A stretch of 64,000 nucleotides of DNA from Lophium mytilinum (lineage: Eukaryota), in assembly GCA_010093605.1 (NCBI GenBank), contig MU004185.1:1509334-1573333 (forward strand), read 5' to 3'. Position 1 is the stretch's first letter. Every line of letters begins with the position of its first letter. The translations under genes and the position numbers were made by a program. Under the pieces are notes generated by a model. That model saw nothing but the letters and a program-made list of their open reading frames with translations. It had not been told where the DNA came from and did no database searches. Of this stretch, positions 3,142 through 31,016 are shown piece by piece.

Positions 3142-3583
3142 GCTGATGCGTATTACGATGTGGGGATGGAGCTGGTTTTGCTGGCATTTGTAAGGCGCCC
3201 CACAAATAGGATGACAAGACGGTGCAATCGTCCATCAGGTCTCTTGAGGTGCAACCAATCTTACCCAATTAGTGTCACTTGACCATCCAACAGCACCACA
3301 TTAGCGAAACAATAGTAGGGAAGCAGACATATATATATTGGGTATACTTGTATCCTACCACCATAAACTGTTGGATCTTTCGATACAGGACAAGATATTT
3401 CGTGGCTTGACACGTCAAAGAAGCGTAGACGTCTTCACCCCTGCAGATTTCACGAAAGATCATGCGGAGGGTTCCTCAAATGCGCACGTTTGTCCACGTC
3501 TCTTCGGATTGCGAACCGCCCAAGCGTACGCGTTGACTCGTAACCGGATCCAATCAGTAGCCAAAGCTACTCTTGAAACTCGC

Positions 3584-23888: not shown

Positions 23889-24554
23889 TTTAGCTACTGC
23901 TTCAGGTGGTTTTCGGAGATGGAGCTGTCTTGATATGGGGAATGACGATGCAAAGAAGATGGGAGGTGGCAGGTTTTGTGTGCGAGTTTTTGTTGCTGAA
24001 CCATGGGTGGATAGGAAGGCTTATACCTATTGCCAAGATAAGATGGAATCAGTGATTCATGGTTCGATTTTCTCGGCAACAAGTTTCAAAGCTAGGCGGT
24101 TCCAGTATTCGGAAAAACGACACAATTGTGACCGCGGAACTCTGGCTTCGTTCGTTATAAATTAGCGTCGTGTGATCGGCTGCCTGAGGGCTCTTAGACG
24201 TCCTAAAGAGGTAGCAATTGGGATAGGTAGGCGAAAGCTTGGAACTCGAGAACATGTATAAACTAGTAACCCCGTACATAATAGACCACCAAGTCGATAA
24301 AATCGCGTTTACTCTACTCGCCAGACTTTTTGAAGTTTCGTCGATATCAACCACTGGCGTATTCCCTGGCCACCTCTAGGTCTTATGGGTAGCTTGAAAG
24401 AACGTACTGTCGCTCGCCCACTCTCCAAACTCTTGCCCCAATTAGATCACTGTTCGAACAGGCGGGATTTGACTGAGCGAATGGACTACGACAAGCGGTC
24501 ACATTGCTGGCATTAAGGAGACTCTTTGGTCGAAACAAACTCAAGGAAGGGCCA

Positions 24555-27500
24555 CTACTTTGCCGTTGCGTTGGGACCGAAACCAAATTCACCAGACTTT
24601 GACCTGGCACCAAAAAGCCCTCCGCCAGACTTTGGCTGGGCAGAATTGCTACCGCTAGCTGTCGTACTGCTGGCACCGAAGAAACCTCCACCAGGCTTTG
24701 ACTGAACAGAGGGGCTATCACTACCCTTCGTATTGCCGGCCCCGAAAAGACTTCCAACCAGCTTCGGTTGTGGGGAATGACCACCGCTAGTCGTCGTGTT
24801 GTTGGTACTGCCTGATGTACCGAAAAGGCTACCTGGTGCCGTCTGGCTGGTTTCAGTTGAACTGAAGAGACTACCGCTGAATCCGCTAGTCGTCGTGCTG
24901 TTGGTGCTGCCTGGTGTACCGAAAAGACTGCTTGGTGTCTGACCGGTTTTGGTTGAATCGAAAAGACTACCACCGAAACCGCTAGGCGTCGTGTTGTTAG
25001 TACTGCCTGATGCACCGAAGAGACTGCTTGGTGCCGTCTGGCTGGTTTTGGTAGAACCGAAAAGACTACCGCCGAAACCACTAGTTGTACTCTTGCTAGC
25101 GTTGCTAAAGCTGCTACCAAGCATACTCAAGGGAATCTTCATGTCGCCAAATCCGCTGGTGCTAGAAGTGGTCTTTTGGGCAGGCCCAGAAGTGTCAGGG
25201 AGGCTGAAACTGGAAGGGTTTGAACCGAAGAGACTATTTCCAGTCTTAATAGCGGTACTCGCACCGAAGCCACCTGTCGTACTAAGCCCGATCGATGGCT
25301 GCGGAGAGTGTTTGGTAGGGGTTCTCGAACTAGATGTCTGGTTCTGCTCGCTTCGGGTCTGAATTGTAGTCTCTTTACTGAACCCGAACAAGTCCACACT
25401 AGCCGTAGACGAGAAAGGAGACTGAGATCGGGATGGGGTACCCGCGCCCAAAGGAGGCTCAACGCTTTTATCCTGAGCCTTGGAACCGGCTGGTGAAGTG
25501 GAAAAAATCGTTGGTAGGAGCTCGCGTAGTTGAGACTTAGTTTGAGTAGAACGCGATGCCCCGTGATCATGCATGCCTGTGTTAGAAAAAATCGAAGTCA
25601 GCATACTGCTACACCGAAGGCTCGTTACATCCATGTTATAAGCATCACAAGAAAAGGAAAGTGGCTTACCGCGAGGCGTGAACTGTTTTATAGTTTCAAG
25701 GCCTGTTTCCAACAGCTCCAATCTTTTCCTTAACCGGGCTCTCTGCTCAATAGTCGCTCGAGACTCAGTAGCAATAGAGGCCAAGATCTCAACGTTCATA
25801 TTCCGTGCTACAGAGGAGGAGAAAACTTTCGGGAGCTCTGCAAGGAGACACTGTTCGATGCCTAATGACGCAACATTGTTCATAAATATCATCATAGCAG
25901 GCTGAAATAGAAGTTAGCTGGTGGTAAATTGAAGAGATCTTTGATTAATGAGGAGAGAGTGAGCTGGCAGAGCATTGAGAAGATGCTTACCTTATAGTAA
26001 GATTGCATCGCGTCTAAAAGCTTCTCATGACTATTGGATGAGTCACGGGTGGTACTGTTTGATGTACCGTCACCCGAATTTTCGCTTTCAACTCCCGGGA
26101 TACCAATAGAGAAGCTAGGGTCAAGGTTCATAGGTTCGTAGTCCTTATGAGGAAGAAGTAGTTCCTGGAGGTTCTTTTCAACCGCTCGACGTCGAACTTT
26201 CATGGCTGGATCGAAGACGTGGACTAGCAAATTGTTGGAGGTCGTCTCGTCGGTAATATGGTCAAGAAGCTCCTCAACAAAGCGGTTGATAGTCACCCAA
26301 ACTCTCTCAATATGGGCACTAGCAAGATCCTCCCAAGGCTCTATCTGTTGACGAAACAAGGATCCGATCAAGAGATGGTTGAAGGCTCCTGGCAACTCGT
26401 GACCCCGCTCACTTCGGACCAGGGGGACTACGATCTCCTGGATAAAATTGCTTCTACGATAAGCTTTACCTTGGAGGAGTTTTACGATAGGCGCTGGATC
26501 ATTTGTCAAATTGTCGGGTATAATGTACCATTTTTGGCCTTGCAGAAGCATCTCATTAGCAAATTCCTCGTTGAGGTTTTGAACCACAGCTCTCAGCTTC
26601 CTATGCTTTTCTTGAAAGAAGCTACTCCGACGATACGTTGCATCTAGTGCATCTCTCATATGCTCGGTGAAAGTTTCGCTGACATCGGAGAGAAAGTCAT
26701 GCTGCTCTTTTGGGGTTTCTCGCGACTTTCCGAGCCTCTTTAGAAGCCCTTCGCTCTCGTCACGGTCTTCATTGAGTTTGGCCAAGATAGACGGCATACT
26801 CTTGCGGATGTGGTCGAGAAGAATCTTGCTAAGCCGCTGTCGCAATGAGTCGATACCCAAACCAGTGTACTGAGTTGGTAAATTTGCCCAGCTACCATTC
26901 TCGAAGAAATCGTGTTCGGCCTGATCTCTTTGTTCAAACGTGCAGCTTTGCGTATCGGAGTCCCAATTTCGAACAACGTGCCAGCCATGCTCAAACTTGA
27001 TCTCAGTATTGCGGGCTAGACTCAGAAAATCCTGCTCTTTCTTCGACTCAGGATGCAGCGTATCCGGTTTAGTGATAATGCCGAGAACTCGGTCGCCTTG
27101 GGGGACGATAGCTTTCGTATATGTCAGGATGACTTGGTTGCTATAATCGTTGTTCGCGGCAACCACCGCGAGGATGATACTGTTACGTTGTTTCATATAT
27201 TTGCGGACGATGTTGGAGACTATTTGTACTTCTTGCTCGTTGTTGCGAAAATGTATGATGCCAGGGAGATCGACGATGGTCAAAGGCGCAAGATCGGGGC
27301 CATTAATCTCGACTTGGAGTATATCGTCGAAGAAAGTCTCCGACTTCTCGTGGTCGATGCCCTTCATGCAGGCCCTTGCCGTTTCGATTAGCTGAGGGAA
27401 ATGGTCTGGCGATTGGAAAGACTCCTTGAATTGGCTCAAGCGTTGTTTGTCCTCATCGGACCGGGACGGCCCAGGCTTGATTTTAGTACTGATGCGTGTA

Positions 27501-27881
27501 GTGGTGCTTCGCCGCAGCTTCAACTCGGTCGCGAAAGTGGTACATAGGTTACTCCGCGTAGGAAAGCGAACCCTAGTCAGAGCTTCCAGAACCTAGATGC
27601 TGTCAGCACTTTTCTTTCAATTGACACAGAACTTCTACGCCGTACTGAGGATTTGCCTGAGCTCTGATCTTCAGCGGTAGTTAGCATGATTTAGGTAACG
27701 AGTAGGTAATCAAATAATTACCTCCACAGACGATGAGTTGTGGTAAGCCGTCCTCTCCTAGCAGTCGACCAACTCCTTGAGAGCGGAGCTGATCAATAAC
27801 ATCGAGTAATTGGGACTCGTCGGGCGAATGCAGCTGGTTCAGCGTAGTCTCAGAAGACCACTTGCTTGAAGGAACGCTCAT
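24555..27881 (-). CDS. Dynamin-like GTPase B with a C-terminal FG-repeat tail; exons 27881-27722, 27668-27646, 27592-25991, 25901-25670 and 25576-24555
   Basis: Spliced G1 LPQLIVCGDQSSGKSSVLE, G2 CTTFATE, G3 DLPG, G4 TKPD, GWHVVRN, RGHELPG and a GED-like helix, followed by an S/T/G-rich tail with about 15 FG dipeptides. All four introns are GT-AG with branch-like motifs. Confidence 0.88.
24781..25091 (-). repeat. Intragenic tandem repeat, three units of 99/96/99 nt (33/32/33 aa) encoding TTSGFGGSLFxSTKTxQTxPSSLFGxxGSTN
   Basis: The CTAG anchor recurs at 25081, 24982, 24886 and 24787, and the translated units align by eye. Confidence 0.9.
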
Positions 27882-28777
27882 GTTGAGTGTGTATCGTTAG
27901 CCGACCGATACCTGAGGCCCTTGCAGTGATTGTTGTCGCGTTGAGACAGGACCGATTTCGATAGTCTTAGTGGACAAGAAAAGGAGCAACGTGGCGTCGA
28001 AGGGTGACAGGCAACGTTCGCCCTTTTGAGACTGAATAAATAGGGTAGCGACATAAGCGCCGTCATTCATGTACCATGGTTGAGGCTGAGCAACAACCTG
28101 GGAGTAGACATGAGACCCCGGTTGCTGCACTTCCAAACTGGCGTTCTGGCTTACAGGGGAGTGTCGCCATACTCAGCTCTGCAACTGCGGCTTGCCGGAG
28201 ATGTGATGGCCATGGAACCATACATCATAGCCGCCTTGACAAGCTTCCGCAACCCTTCAGTAGGTAGGTCACGAGCATTCTGACTGCTCATGCATGACCG
28301 GGAACTAATAGAACCAGCGAAGGATACGCGCCAGGGCGTCGAGAGGGCGATCTGATGCATGAAATAGGGACATCTAGAAGCGCTGCTGTGCCACAATAAT
28401 GCAGGTTGGAAAGAGAACTTGCAGATTTTGACTGTTGAGGTTCAAGCGACTATATCACGTCGGGAAGGATCTTCCCCTGAGTGTCAGCTATATATAATGC
28501 CGAATTTGACCGTGACAGTGGATGTATGGGACGAGGAGGTGAGGTTGAAGGCGGAATCCGAAGCTGACCCCCACGCCGCCCCTTGGAAGGTGTGCCCAAG
28601 CGTCACGCTAGTCCAGAAACTTAATGGCCAAGTTTACGACTTCATCCCATATCAATGAGCAACATATTTACCGCAAAAGTTGGCAGTACATCGAACTGAA
28701 TGATGTGAATGTAGACTAAAGCTCTCGTATCATACATTTTCTCAATTCAAAAAGCAGGCTCCAATTCAAGCCCTCTC

Positions 28778-31016
28778 ATGCCTCCTGATCGCGGCAGGGC
28801 CTCCGTGGCCTGCACCGCTTGCCGAAAGCAGAAGACACGATGCTACGAAACGATTAACGGGAAAGCCTGTCTAAGGTGTGACAGGCTTCAGCAGCCTTGC
28901 TCTCTGGATGCGTTGGCTGGTAAGGGACATGATGCACGGAGATACGACCATCGGGACATGAGCACCGTGGACGAGGACGATAGGTAAGAGATCAGCTTCG
29001 AGCTGAGACGCTCGTCAGTTTCTTTGCCTTTGCGATTATTCGGTGCTCTCGGAGGTTATGTTTTGAAAGGTCACGAAGTTCTACCACTTGCTTCAAAATC
29101 AGCACGTGTCGGTACATTCCATCCAGTGGAGATACTCGTATCCACCCATCGAACTGTATCCCATACAATGATATGCCATCACAGTCCGAGCTCATGATTG
29201 CTGGCTGCTCTGCTGTATGATGAATTCGACTCATGCTTCGATAAGTAGCCTCGTTGCTCACGTCTAGATGAGTACCGTCAAATTACATCGAATGGCAATA
29301 GCTCAATTTACGTCATGACTTCTGCTAACTTCTTTCTGCAGAATAGGCCGTCTTGAACGCACCGTCGACTTCTTAGTCAAGCGTATAGAAGAGATATCCG
29401 AGCCTAGACAAGCGTCACCATCCGCTACATCGTCAATAGGACCCGTATCAGTTGACCCGGGCCTAACAGTTCCGCTAGAGGAGCCCTCTTCGGCCCCTCT
29501 TTTCGTGTTACGCGATGTTGCGGCCGAAGCTGGTGTTCAGGCGCCGCAAGATGAAATAGCCACGAACACGCTGAAGTTGAGGCTTAAAAGTCGCGACATT
29601 ATAGCGAGTGGATTACTTACGGGCCAAGACGCCTCGACATTACTTTCACTGTAATAGCTAGACATGGTCCAGAAAGTAGCTGACGACGCTAACCCTTCAC
29701 AGGTTCAATGAGCATTACGGACGCTGGGTATCATTCAATCCGTCAACCACTCCTGAGAGACTTCTTGCTGAAGTACGAGGTTCGCCTCTCCTCTTATCTG
29801 CCTGTTGCTTAATAGCAATCCGTCACACTACACAAGACCTCGCGTCCAGAATAGCCCCTCAACTTTTTCGGGAAGCGAAGGAGCTCTTATCCGCAGCTAT
29901 GCTAGCCGTCCCACAGCCCTTGGACTTCTTCCAAGCCTCATTGATTATGAGCATGTGGTCAACGACAATCTCTCAGATGCCGCTCAGCGTAGATAGCTGG
30001 TTGCTTAGTGGATTCGCACTCCAACACGCTCTTGCTACGAACTTGTTTCGGCCAGTCACAAACACGAGCGACCCGTCCGCCGCTAGGAAACGCGCTCTGG
30101 ATCGGCTTTGTATCTGGAATCATCTGTGCTTAGTCCATCTACAGTAAGACTAGAATGCCGTCATGATTGCCGGTACTAACAAATTCAGTTACTCTGTAGG
30201 CACCCGGCGAAAGGCTATGCTAGATCGCCAGCAGATTGATCGATGTCGCGGCGTTCTGGACTCCGATCATGCAACGAATTTTGAATCACGAATGGTGGGT
30301 GAGGTCCACCTCTACTGGATAATTTATGAGAGCTGTTTGGCTATTCCTGTGGATCTTCCGAAGACTCAAGCTGCGTTATGGAAATGGAAAGAAGATTGGA
30401 AATTCCTATTCGGTAAGTTTATGGTCAGATTTTTCGAGTCCCACTAATGCAACCAGATCAACCAAGGTCACAATTCATTCAGATGGGGTTCCATTTCGCA
30501 CAACTCATAATCTATGACCAGTCTCTCAAGACCCGCTCTGCTGCGGTACGAGAGTCATTAATCTCCGAAATGGTACGCCTATCGACCGCGATCATCAATC
30601 TTGCCATGGAAACCACAGATGATCGTACACGACACTTGACCGACCACATCTACCACATGATCGCCTTTGCTGCCGTAACCCTCTCTAGAATCATGCATCT
30701 TTACGAAAGTCAACTGCCCGCATCTTACAATCTCGTTGAACTCGATAATCTAGTGCTTTCCTTGGTCTCCTGGCTCCACTCCATTGGACTTCCGTGCCAC
30801 GTTGCGTACACCCTCGGCGATGTTGTCGCATCATTCCACAAGAAGCTCCGGCCGAATACACAGCTCAGCCCGACAAACTCGTACGAAGATGCAGATCCTT
30901 TCAGCCAAGAGGACTTTGCGTCTCTTTTCCCAGAGCTATTCGGTACTGAATCTTTTGAAGGAAGCATTGGCAATCTGTTGCCGGACTGGGGTCCGATTAG
31001 CTATCCCTCCAATTGA
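28778..31016 (+). CDS. Zn(II)2Cys6 transcription factor (PriB-like); multi-exon, with introns at about 28984-29341, 29651-29702, 30144-30188 and 30413-30456
   Basis: ACTACRKQKTRC...CLRCDRLQQPC cluster, followed by middle-homology-region fragments (DSWLLSGFALQH, RLCIWNHLCLVHL, RTRHLTDHIYHMI). Confidence 0.88.

Follow-up and report, generated by a model that had tools for sequence, protein, structure and literature searches.

A Mx-like dynamin with an FG-nucleoporin-like tail in Lophium mytilinum

The stretch of DNA analyzed here (the window) is 64,000 nt of contig MU004185.1 from the fungus Lophium mytilinum. On its minus strand lies a five-exon gene (27881..24555) with a 1012-aa product (Table 1). 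Translation of the joined exons is identical in every letter to P0156, an NCBI "hypothetical protein" of the same species. An in-frame TAA at 27899 lies upstream of the start ATG (27881), and the stop codon ends at 24555; the original prediction, made from the letters alone, had the coordinates and the content of the gene right. It had also named as a check whether the last exon, which encodes an FG-rich tail, is on the same mRNA as the exons of the GTPase, and the transcript evidence says that it is: a single 3964-nt contig omits exactly the four introns, with four GT..AG joints and 0 mismatches, and since this one spliced contig covers all exons, FG exon and GTPase exons share an mRNA. The contig derives from one run (X1), labelled "RNA?"; it is nonetheless spliced, and by this one contig the gene is expressed. 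A Pfam survey of the neighborhood (12 ORFs, 7 of them without a match) found no defense-type cluster within about 10 kb on either side. The neighbors over that distance include a DHDPS-family protein, a Zn2Cys6 factor, a purine-cytosine permease, an arylsulfotransferase, and an ankyrin protein.

Table 1. Features of the dynamin-FG gene, in positions of the window
Feature	Positions	Strand	Description
5' UTR	27882..28100	-	from the transcript contig, which has 422 further letters upstream of 28100
Exon 1	27722..27881	-	codons 1-54; BSE helix at the N-terminus, then first part of the P-loop; contig joint 27722/27668
Intron 1	27669..27721	-	53 nt, GT..AG; absent from transcript contig
Exon 2	27646..27668	-	23-nt micro-exon; core of G1/P-loop (DQSSGKSS)
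Intron 2	27593..27645	-	53 nt, GT..AG; absent from transcript contig
Exon 3	25991..27592	-	codons 62-595; G domain (G3 DLPG, G4 TKPD), middle/stalk, L4-like loop; Dynamin_N and Dynamin_M
Intron 3	25902..25990	-	89 nt, GT..AG; absent from transcript contig
Exon 4	25670..25901	-	codons 596-673; GED / final helices of stalk and BSE (AF2, GED Pfam of relatives)
Intron 4	25577..25669	-	93 nt, GT..AG; absent from transcript contig
Exon 5	24555..25576	-	codons 673-1012 and stop; entire 339-aa tail, predicted disordered, with FG repeats
Tandem units	24795..25088	-	three units of 33, 32, and 33 aa (TRF and unit borders)
3' UTR	24300..24554	-	minimum extent; contig colinear with no further joint, about 29 nt more past 24300

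A gene of this kind could in principle be an annotation artefact, with an adjacent dynamin gene and FG-protein gene misread as one. The single point in favor of this is the placement of intron 4, which divides fold from tail precisely. Against it, GED and tail would be read in a single open frame (24555..25913) even if no splicing took place, all exons are spanned by the transcript contig with its four joints, and gene models of many genomes show the same architecture, and we regard an artefact as hardly credible. That the gene is real, is transcribed, and encodes a 1012-aa Mx-like dynamin with an FG tail is close to certain, in identity as in architecture. As a separate observation, the length of intron 4 is a multiple of 3 and it contains no stop; if retained, it would insert 31 aa and leave the frame intact.

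The folded body, residues 1-673, comprises the G domain, BSE, and stalk of a dynamin. The G1 (GDQSSGKS at 53), G3 (DLPG at 169), and G4 (TKPD at 235) motifs of a dynamin-type large G domain are present, and in Pfam the full protein matches Dynamin_N (1.7e-32) and Dynamin_M (4.5e-22). Over residues 12-675 the AF2 model has high confidence, with pLDDT mostly >85 in the part encoded by exon 3. Long helices of high pLDDT run through residues 308-667, as expected for the stalk and BSE of the dynamin superfamily, and an L4-like loop with lower values (about 545-577, pLDDT 55-75) lies between stalk helices. Pfam reports no GED for the window protein and does report one in relatives, at the aligned place; we assign the GED here because of those matches and the modelled helices at 578-667. 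The motifs, the two Pfam domains, and these helices together bear out the earlier reading of a complete dynamin GTPase.

Its place among dynamins was judged by sequence and by fold. When the full protein was compared with the PDB by phmmer, the closest solved relatives by sequence were human Mx2 (5e-32) and Mx1 (4.5e-30), ten orders ahead of Vps1 (1.5e-20), Drp1 (1.8e-19), Mgm1 (1.1e-17), and dynamin-1 (8e-17). This ranking, which concerns sequence only, is in line with the original prediction of a protein that is Mx-like and not Vps1-, Dnm1-, or Mgm1-like, and we know of no FG tails of this sort on Vps1, Dnm1, or Mgm1. By fold, the best Foldseek match of the AF2 model is full-length MxB (5uot), with full-length MxB, Drp1, and dynamin all between E 1e-22 and 1e-20, and Mx is not separated from Drp1 or dynamin. 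Some relatives carry the source name "Interferon-induced GTP-binding protein MxA". Human MX2/MxB, the best match in both searches, is built like the window protein from G domain, BSE, and stalk, with no PH domain. Classical dynamin differs more: it is further away by sequence, and at the place of its PH domain, for which Pfam gives no match in the window protein, the AF2 model has the short loop at about 545-577. Where classical dynamin has a proline-rich domain full of SH3 ligands, the window protein has none, its tail being 7% Pro and FG-rich. Classical dynamin does, like the window protein, extend into a disordered domain C-terminal to the GED, which in its case serves targeting.

The tail (residues 674-1012) is 339 aa long, close to the S/T/G-rich, low-complexity extension of roughly 340 aa that had been predicted to continue in frame from the GTPase. 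It contains 15 FG among its 24 F, the predicted number, mainly as SLFG, GLFG, or GFG and spaced by 2-40 residues. In 20,000 shuffles of the tail the mean was 3.55 FG (SD 1.67, maximum 12), which places the observed count at z 6.6; the whole dynamin body (residues 1-673) contains no FG. The tail is rich in S (22%), G (14.7%), and T (14%), with 5.0% K, 1.8% R, and 1.2% H; it lacks W, Y, and C, and charged residues make up 10.6%. It is predicted to be disordered because residues 676-1012 have pLDDT <50 and no secondary structure in the AF2 model. A disordered domain with repeated FG and hydrophilic spacers is what characterizes FG nucleoporins, and the analysis supports a tail resembling FG nucleoporins in its motif types, its composition, and its predicted disorder. 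The Pfam model Nucleoporin_FG (PF13634) scored 30.4 bits with the tail piece and 23.0 with the full protein, both below the gathering score of 32.2; no nucleoporin chain was matched when the full protein was compared with the PDB by phmmer. Searched against 5.8 billion proteins (lengths 556-1771 aa), the tail had no match but itself at E up to 1e-3, and a feature-based search of the ESM Atlas gave no usable match among named clusters. The closest known parallels are Nup98, Nup116, Nup100, and Nup145N, in which GLFG, SLFG, and GFG likewise fill a cohesive domain that is disordered and low in charge. An autoproteolytic or pore-anchoring domain is absent from the window protein, which has a dynamin body in its place. 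We do not class the window protein as a nucleoporin because this body is its sole folded part and no anchor to the pore scaffold, whether a structured domain or a linear motif, was found in it.

Part of the tail arose by internal duplication. TRF reports a period of 99 with 3.1 copies and 82% matches, corresponding to the three tandem units, each of which originally read GFG..SLFG..SLFG. The units had been described as near-identical and the expansion as recent. The three units are real, but pairs of them are only 75-85% identical in protein, and dS between them is 0.54-0.61, which speaks against a recent origin. One explanation for such a tail is neutral: low-complexity sequence spread by replication slippage, with the FG count simply reflecting the unit that was copied. 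This would fit with the fact that 6 of the 15 FG lie within the units, that three of the nine FG positions in the units have decayed to FD or FS, and that tails in this family evolve too fast to be aligned. However, dN/dS between the units is 0.11-0.24 (from only about 32 codons per pair), and at a dS of about 0.55 this implies constraint on the units after duplication, so the protein was conserved long after the copies arose. The remaining nine FG are found elsewhere in the tail, in contexts of other kinds; the mature mRNA includes the tail; and FG enrichment is seen again in five fungal classes. We therefore consider the neutral explanation improbable. The substitution pattern indicates that purifying selection has acted on the tail ever since the triplication within it.

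Among relatives, a long tail is common and an FG-rich one less so. Tails of at least 80 aa, rich in S/T/P, follow in 71 of the 107 proteins with a detectable GED. If FG-rich is taken to mean a tail of at least 80 aa with at least 4 FG and z of at least 3.3, then 23 of the 71 are FG-rich and 48 are not FG-enriched; among the 24 relatives of at least 936 aa, 13 have tails with five or more FG. The original prediction had named FG enrichment in orthologues as a check; relatives do show such enrichment, though scattered on the tree (14 changes for 19 FG rows; 10 for 10 in a first tree). FG-rich tails span five classes of Pezizomycotina (Dothideo-, Sordario-, Leotio-, Eurotio-, and Xylonomycetes), and every named holder of the architecture belongs to Pezizomycotina. 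In 37 metagenome loci that reach the end of the GED (five of them with <600 nt of DNA downstream), a downstream ORF with at least 3 FG was found in 2 and one with at least 5 FG in none. Three relatives score above the gathering threshold of Nucleoporin_FG (P0005 41.1, P0173 37.6, and P0176, from Trichoderma virens, 43.1). Across 168 FG motifs from 19 FG-rich tails, the preceding residue is most often L (50), G (28), or A (24) and the one before it S (61) or G (50), with just 2 FxFG. The FG-rich tails are not mutually alignable (best E 0.004), so FG content either persists or recurs without conservation of sequence.

These distributions bear on a second alternative: that the tail is a generic, fast-evolving domain for recruitment or self-association placed after the GED, as the proline-rich domain is in dynamin, whose F motifs bind a partner outside the pore or cluster the GTPase and whose likeness to FG nucleoporins is convergent. 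The commonness of long S/T/P-rich tails, two thirds of them not FG-enriched, is what one would expect in that case, as are the LF[S/D/A] motifs that replace FG in many of them, the quite different C-terminal modules that Pfam finds in other members (DUF7104 repeats, HET, and an OTT_1508 deaminase), the scatter of the FG state on the tree, and the fact that the tail of the window protein has no sequence relative. On the other hand, more FG than composition predicts turns up repeatedly in tails that do not align with each other, and the flavor of the motifs is that of GLFG/SLFG nucleoporins. A further observation in relatives weighs against convergence by chance: a second, specific hallmark of Nup98, the GLEBS motif that binds Gle2/Rae1, lies behind the FG region at the end of several relatives (P0157, P0159, P0030, P0115, P0166-P0168, L031, L023, and L020). 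For this, chance convergence is a poor explanation, and a generic role of the tail appears doubtful to us.

The GLEBS assignment comes from several searches. Pfam Nup98_GLEBS scored 26.3 bits (E 7.8e-6; gathering score 27) in L031 and 18.1 bits in L023. A profile built from five C-terminal ends was compared with the PDB, and the top 8 of 10 matches were Nup98 GLEBS chains (3mmy_B, 4owr_B, and 7byf_B at E 2e-6), full-length Nup98 being aligned at residues 176-212. Further ends matched the profile (P0159 at 4e-6, L020 at 2e-3, and P0166-P0168 at about 0.03). The five-sequence profile was needed for this: when phmmer compared one GLEBS-like end by itself (P0030) with the PDB, only chance-level matches to RPC10 came back, and Pfam gave nothing on the last 80 aa of P0157, though the motif is visible there. 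In the window gene, GLEBS had 0 matches on its strand. P0157 and P0159 appear to belong to the window protein's own clade of seven rows (100* support), with a member list that we infer. Given GLEBS ends behind FG regions in these relatives, the family tail resembles the functional part of Nup98, at the N-terminus of that protein. The window protein, which has no GLEBS, scores below the Nucleoporin_FG threshold, and has a tail alignable only to itself, is an FG-only version of it. The motif comparisons support a link to nucleoporins that is stronger than was known when the original prediction was made.

A third alternative moves the pore elsewhere. In Pezizomycotina hyphae the disordered tail might, as in SPA/SPP proteins, bring the GTPase to the septal pore and so help to plug or gate the channels between cells. 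The restriction of all named holders of the architecture to Pezizomycotina would suit this, and in the available text of a report on septal proteins disordered regions are sufficient for some SPP proteins to accumulate at septal pores (PMC10023807). The same text describes septal disordered regions as biased toward Arg/His and poor in Lys/Gly relative to FG nucleoporins, which is unlike the composition of the window tail given above, and "dynamin" occurs in it 0 times. The GLEBS motifs of relatives point instead to the nuclear pore and the mRNA-export machinery, and septal targeting seems very improbable.

Fungal proteins that group with animal Mx have recently been named MxF: they are uncharacterized members of the dynamin superfamily, in the available text of the report (Langley et al., PNAS 2025, PMC11789081), with a highly variable copy number that reaches five in Aspergillus fumigatus. 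Proteins of A. fumigatus are among the relatives of the window gene, at 37-40% identity. The words "nucleoporin", "disordered", and "low complexity" each occur 0 times in PMC11789081, so FG and GLEBS tails are not described there; the part of its supplements available to us holds accessions without clade labels and no Lophium, Glonium, or Xylona. Literature searches found no paper on an Mx-like dynamin with an FG tail, in keeping with the suspicion that the architecture was undescribed, and nothing relevant on Mx-like genes in mycovirus work beyond PMC11789081.

How might the two halves work together? In human MxB, a disordered extension at the BSE corner sets targeting: it is N-terminal, about 90 aa long, and basic, and directs the protein to pores and capsids. 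The Mx-like body of the window protein would form GTP-dependent dimers and oligomers displaying many FG tails, which would leave the fold at that same BSE corner. Such a multivalent array may bind karyopherins and other FG domains and thereby either put the GTPase into the barrier of the nuclear pore or nucleate pore-like FG condensates in the cytoplasm. We see about an even chance that the tail acts through FG/karyopherin-type contacts. Human MX2 works with FG nucleoporins in pore-like condensates, according to the accessible part of a preprint (bioRxiv 10.1101/2023.06.22.545931). MxB recruits FG nucleoporins in trans, whereas the extension of the window protein is C-terminal, 339 aa long, and itself an FG domain. 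Fungi also have no interferon system.

By analogy with the MX2 condensates, the likely use of such an array would be to intercept genetic parasites that need passage through the pore, and a role in defense or as a decoy is offered tentatively, as something rather unlikely in our own estimate. Most known mycoviruses replicate in the cytoplasm, which weakens the case for a pore decoy directed against them. One specific form of the idea, which we also judge unlikely, is an integrated decoy, in which an imitation of the exposed part of Nup98 (cohesive FG and, in many members, GLEBS) is fused to an oligomerizing GTPase, such that parasites engaging the pore bind the bait and are trapped in GTPase-driven, pore-like condensates. 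Candidate targets would be capsids of retroelements or viruses and viral proteins that attack Nup98-Rae1. The protein would then be a one-polypeptide version of human MX2 recruiting FG nucleoporins, with the window protein as the FG-only variant, and an arms race would have left its mark in the scattered way in which FG, GLEBS, HET, deaminase, and repeat modules were won and lost.

Antiviral activity is what Mx GTPases are classically known for. The Mx-like genes of fungi were first recognized in 2025, and no function has yet been assigned to them. An FG domain of the protein's own, together with relatives that bear GLEBS, offers a concrete link, open to testing, from this fungal family to the nuclear pore, one that parallels the recent finding of FG-nucleoporin condensates with human MX2. 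If the link is true, imitating the pore would be an old strategy to which Mx-type immunity has turned repeatedly, and the tail would be a natural FG domain outside the pore, with named relatives in culturable Trichoderma, Aspergillus, and Xylaria.

The FG tail of the window protein (P0156 among the proteins compared) is encoded on the same assembled mRNA as its GTPase, as the original prediction required. X1, the sole public sequencing run with the window's DNA (labelled 'RNA?'), gave a single 3964-nt contig that covers 24300-28100 with 0 mismatches and leaves out exactly the four introns (53, 53, 89 and 93 nt, GT..AG ends in all four), thereby joining the FG exon to the GTPase exons; the evidence is an assembled contig, not a single molecule. 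The spliced product, 1012 aa, is identical to P0156, annotated as 'hypothetical protein BU16DRAFT_302086 [Lophium mytilinum]', and the contig continues unspliced beyond the stop. The link between GED and tail is also independent of splicing, because intron 4 (25577-25669, minus strand; 93 nt) is in frame and stop-free, and 24555..25913 reads as one uninterrupted open frame. That the architecture is a gene-fusion artefact is scarcely credible when GED and tail share one open frame and one contig spans all exons. Intron 4 lies precisely at the border of fold and tail; its retention would give a 1043-aa protein with 31 additional residues, and the spliced form alone was seen. The P-loop micro-exon sits between two 53-nt introns, and the contig confirms all three. 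Upstream, a divergent Zn(2)-Cys(6) transcription-factor ORF occupies 28715-28984 (plus strand); the contig extends 422 letters past 28100, so that its 5′ UTR would measure about 640 nt and come within some 200 nt of the ORF. Open frames at 24383-25126 (minus), 24943-25362 (plus) and 25139-25597 (minus) overlap the tail exon and are by-products of the low-complexity repeat, whereas the FG frame alone is backed by transcript and annotated protein.

Features of the FG-tailed dynamin gene and of GLEBS-ended relatives (P, proteins compared; L, metagenome loci of the family)
Feature	Position	Strand	Basis or remark
Start ATG	27881	-	in-frame TAA upstream at 27899
Exon 1	27881..27722	-	transcript contig
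Exon 2, 23-nt micro-exon, P-loop core DQSSGKSS	27668..27646	-	transcript contig
Exon 3	27592..25991	-	transcript contig
Exon 4	25901..25670	-	transcript contig
Exon 5, entire FG tail	25576..24555	-	transcript contig
Three tandem units (33, 32, 33 aa)	25088..24795	-	repeat analysis
Stop TAG	24557-24555	-	closes five-exon gene
GLEBS-ended P0157, P0159, P0030, P0115, P0166-P0168	C-terminus		motif/profile
GLEBS locus L031	6451-6702		motif/profile
GLEBS locus L023	6637-6840		motif/profile
GLEBS locus L020	~3272-3550		motif/profile

The body (residues 1-673) is a dynamin closest in sequence, among solved structures, to Mx. Pfam matches Dynamin_N (1.7e-32) and Dynamin_M (4.5e-22), and the G1, G3 and G4 motifs read GDQSSGKS, DLPG and TKPD. 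AlphaFold2, run on a 72-row alignment, confidently models residues 12-675 as a G domain with long stalk helices, and places a short low-confidence loop (about 545-577) at the position of the PH domain in classical dynamin. When all PDB sequences were searched, human Mx2 (5e-32) and Mx1 (4.5e-30) came first, followed by Vps1 (1.5e-20), Drp1 (about 2e-19), Mgm1 (1e-17) and dynamin-1 (8e-17); Foldseek ranks full-length MxB first, with no separation from Drp1 or dynamin. Uncharacterised fungal 'MxF' proteins group with animal Mx (excerpt of Langley et al., PMC11789081). Relatives from A. fumigatus share 37-40% identity with the window gene, and on sequence the window protein is likely a member of the MxF clade.

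In the AlphaFold2 model the tail (residues 674-1012) lacks secondary structure, and its pLDDT stays below 50. It is rich in S (22%), G (15%) and T (14%), 10.6% charged, and free of W, Y and C. Glycine follows 15 of its 24 phenylalanines (20,000 shuffles: mean 3.55, SD 1.67, maximum 12), which bears out the roughly 15 FG dipeptides predicted; residues 1-673 have none. The contexts are SLFG (six), other LFG (two), GFG (five), FFG (one) and EFG (one). Against a gathering score of 32.2, Pfam Nucleoporin_FG falls short on the tail piece (30.4 bits) as well as on the full protein (23.0 bits). A tail directed to the septal pore is highly improbable: septal IDRs are R/H-rich and G/K-poor (excerpt of PMC10023807), and this tail is the opposite. 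The three units that the original prediction called near-identical are real, but its 'recent' expansion does not hold. Pairs of units (about 32 codons each) differ by dS 0.54-0.61 and dN 0.07-0.135 (dN/dS 0.11-0.24); the many synonymous differences make the triplication old, and the low ratio implies that the protein sequence has been constrained since. Both points also count against neutral low complexity, which we consider quite improbable. Three of nine FG positions in the units are now FD or FS, and the tail can be aligned to no other protein. It carries two minimal CDK-type sites, TPSR (719-722) and TPTK (758-761), and eight other S/T-P sites; Aspergillus FG nucleoporins are dispersed by mitotic phosphorylation.

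FG enrichment, which was expected in orthologues, recurs in the family. Scanning all 1.84 billion representatives gave 5550 matches, the best 150 at 32-67% identity. A GED was detectable in 107 of the 174 proteins compared. Tails 80 aa or longer, most of them S/T/P-rich, are present in 71 of the 107, and 23 of these 71 have four or more FG at a z of 3.3 or higher, a count that includes the window protein as well as three near-copies of P0093, a relative. Named holders span five classes: Dothideomycetes (Lophium, Glonium, Amniculicola, Melanomma, Lasiodiplodia), Sordariomycetes (Trichoderma twice, Cylindrodendrum, Xylaria, Nemania, Lasiosphaeria), Leotiomycetes (Cudoniella), Eurotiomycetes (Aspergillus pseudoustus) and Xylonomycetes (Xylona). 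Among relatives of at least 936 aa, 13 of 24 have at least five FG in the tail, and three named FG-tail relatives reach the Pfam Nucleoporin_FG threshold. The consensus over 168 FG motifs in 19 such tails is [S/G][L/G/A/V]FG[S/G/A], with FxFG nearly absent; the tails of relatives do not align with one another (best E 0.004). FG-tailed rows are dispersed over a FastTree phylogeny of the G and middle regions, where 10 such rows among 139 require 10 changes. A larger tree, omitting rows with fewer than 440 query residues and P0153-P0155, P0158, P0161 and P0172, gives 14 changes for 19 FG rows among 156, with at least 11 forced; four of 500 shuffles were as low. The GED end is reached in 37 of 80 metagenome loci (five of the 37 with less than 600 nt of DNA downstream), and just L031 (4 FG) and L030 (3 FG) have an FG-bearing downstream ORF. 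The scattered state and the few metagenome ORFs argue against deep conservation: FG tails recur, but as a labile condition of a C-terminal module that varies. Some cases may be concealed by truncated gene models.

Several relatives terminate, past an F/FG-rich region, in S-x-E-E-[LI]-R-x-x-D-Y, which we take to be the GLEBS (Gle2/Rae1-binding) core of Nup98. A strict pattern matched 3 of the 174 proteins and 2 of the 80 loci, at the extreme C-terminus every time, and nothing in the six frames of the 64-kb window; by pattern and profile, the window gene has no GLEBS motif on its strand. Nup98_GLEBS is the sole Pfam family matched on these ends (L031 26.3 bits, E 7.8e-6, against a gathering score of 27; L023 18.1, P0030 12.6 and P0115 12.0 bits), with no such match at the end of P0157. 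A2, a profile of these five ends, found 10 matches among 177,635 distinct PDB sequences. The top eight are all Nup98: besides the GLEBS peptides of 7byf, 4owr and 3mmy (E 2e-6) and of 7vpg, they include the full-length protein, aligned at residues 176-212. A2 also recognises further family ends (P0159 4e-6; L020 2e-3; P0166, P0167 and P0168 about 0.03). P0157, an FG-rich protein of Melanomma, and P0159, from Periconia, appear, we infer, to sit within the window protein's seven-row clade (support 100*). In L031 and L023 the GLEBS ORF lies on the same strand a few hundred bases downstream, plausibly joined through in-frame GT..AG introns. A generic recruitment or self-association domain is a possible but doubtful reading of the tail, given that FG enrichment recurs and relatives bear GLEBS.

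At the C-terminus, other members bear different modules, and their layout recalls that of fungal non-self or immune proteins. Seven DUF7104 repeats, a HET domain and an OTT_1508-like deaminase are distributed among P0160/P0161 (Aspergillus fumigatus), P0169 (Neopestalotiopsis), P0174 (Aspergillus lentulus) and P0158 (Lachnellula); one of the proteins contains a tandem pair of dynamin units. Merging of gene models may account for some of these combinations, as in P0115, where an AMP-binding piece is also present.

The architecture was proposed as undescribed, and our literature searches turned up no account of a dynamin bearing FG repeats or GLEBS; the excerpted MxF paper (PMC11789081) mentions neither nucleoporins nor disorder. 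Databases hold the window protein as 'hypothetical', with automatic Nucleoporin_FG matches on a few relatives.

The tail of this family mimics the functional half at the N-terminus of Nup98-type nucleoporins, in which cohesive FG repeats stand alone or together with GLEBS; the window protein represents the version that has FG only. Dynamin-family structures bring the C-terminal helix back to the BSE beside the N-terminus, so the FG tail would exit the fold at the site where MxB bears its N-terminal targeting domain. Human MX2 and FG nucleoporins form cytoplasmic condensates that act as pore decoys (excerpt of bioRxiv 10.1101/2023.06.22.545931), and selection on yeast pore genes is linked to Ty elements (excerpt of PMC5918913). 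A role in defence or as a decoy is plausible but unproven; most likely, the oligomerising GTPase would display multivalent FG and thereby dock at the pore or form pore-like condensates.
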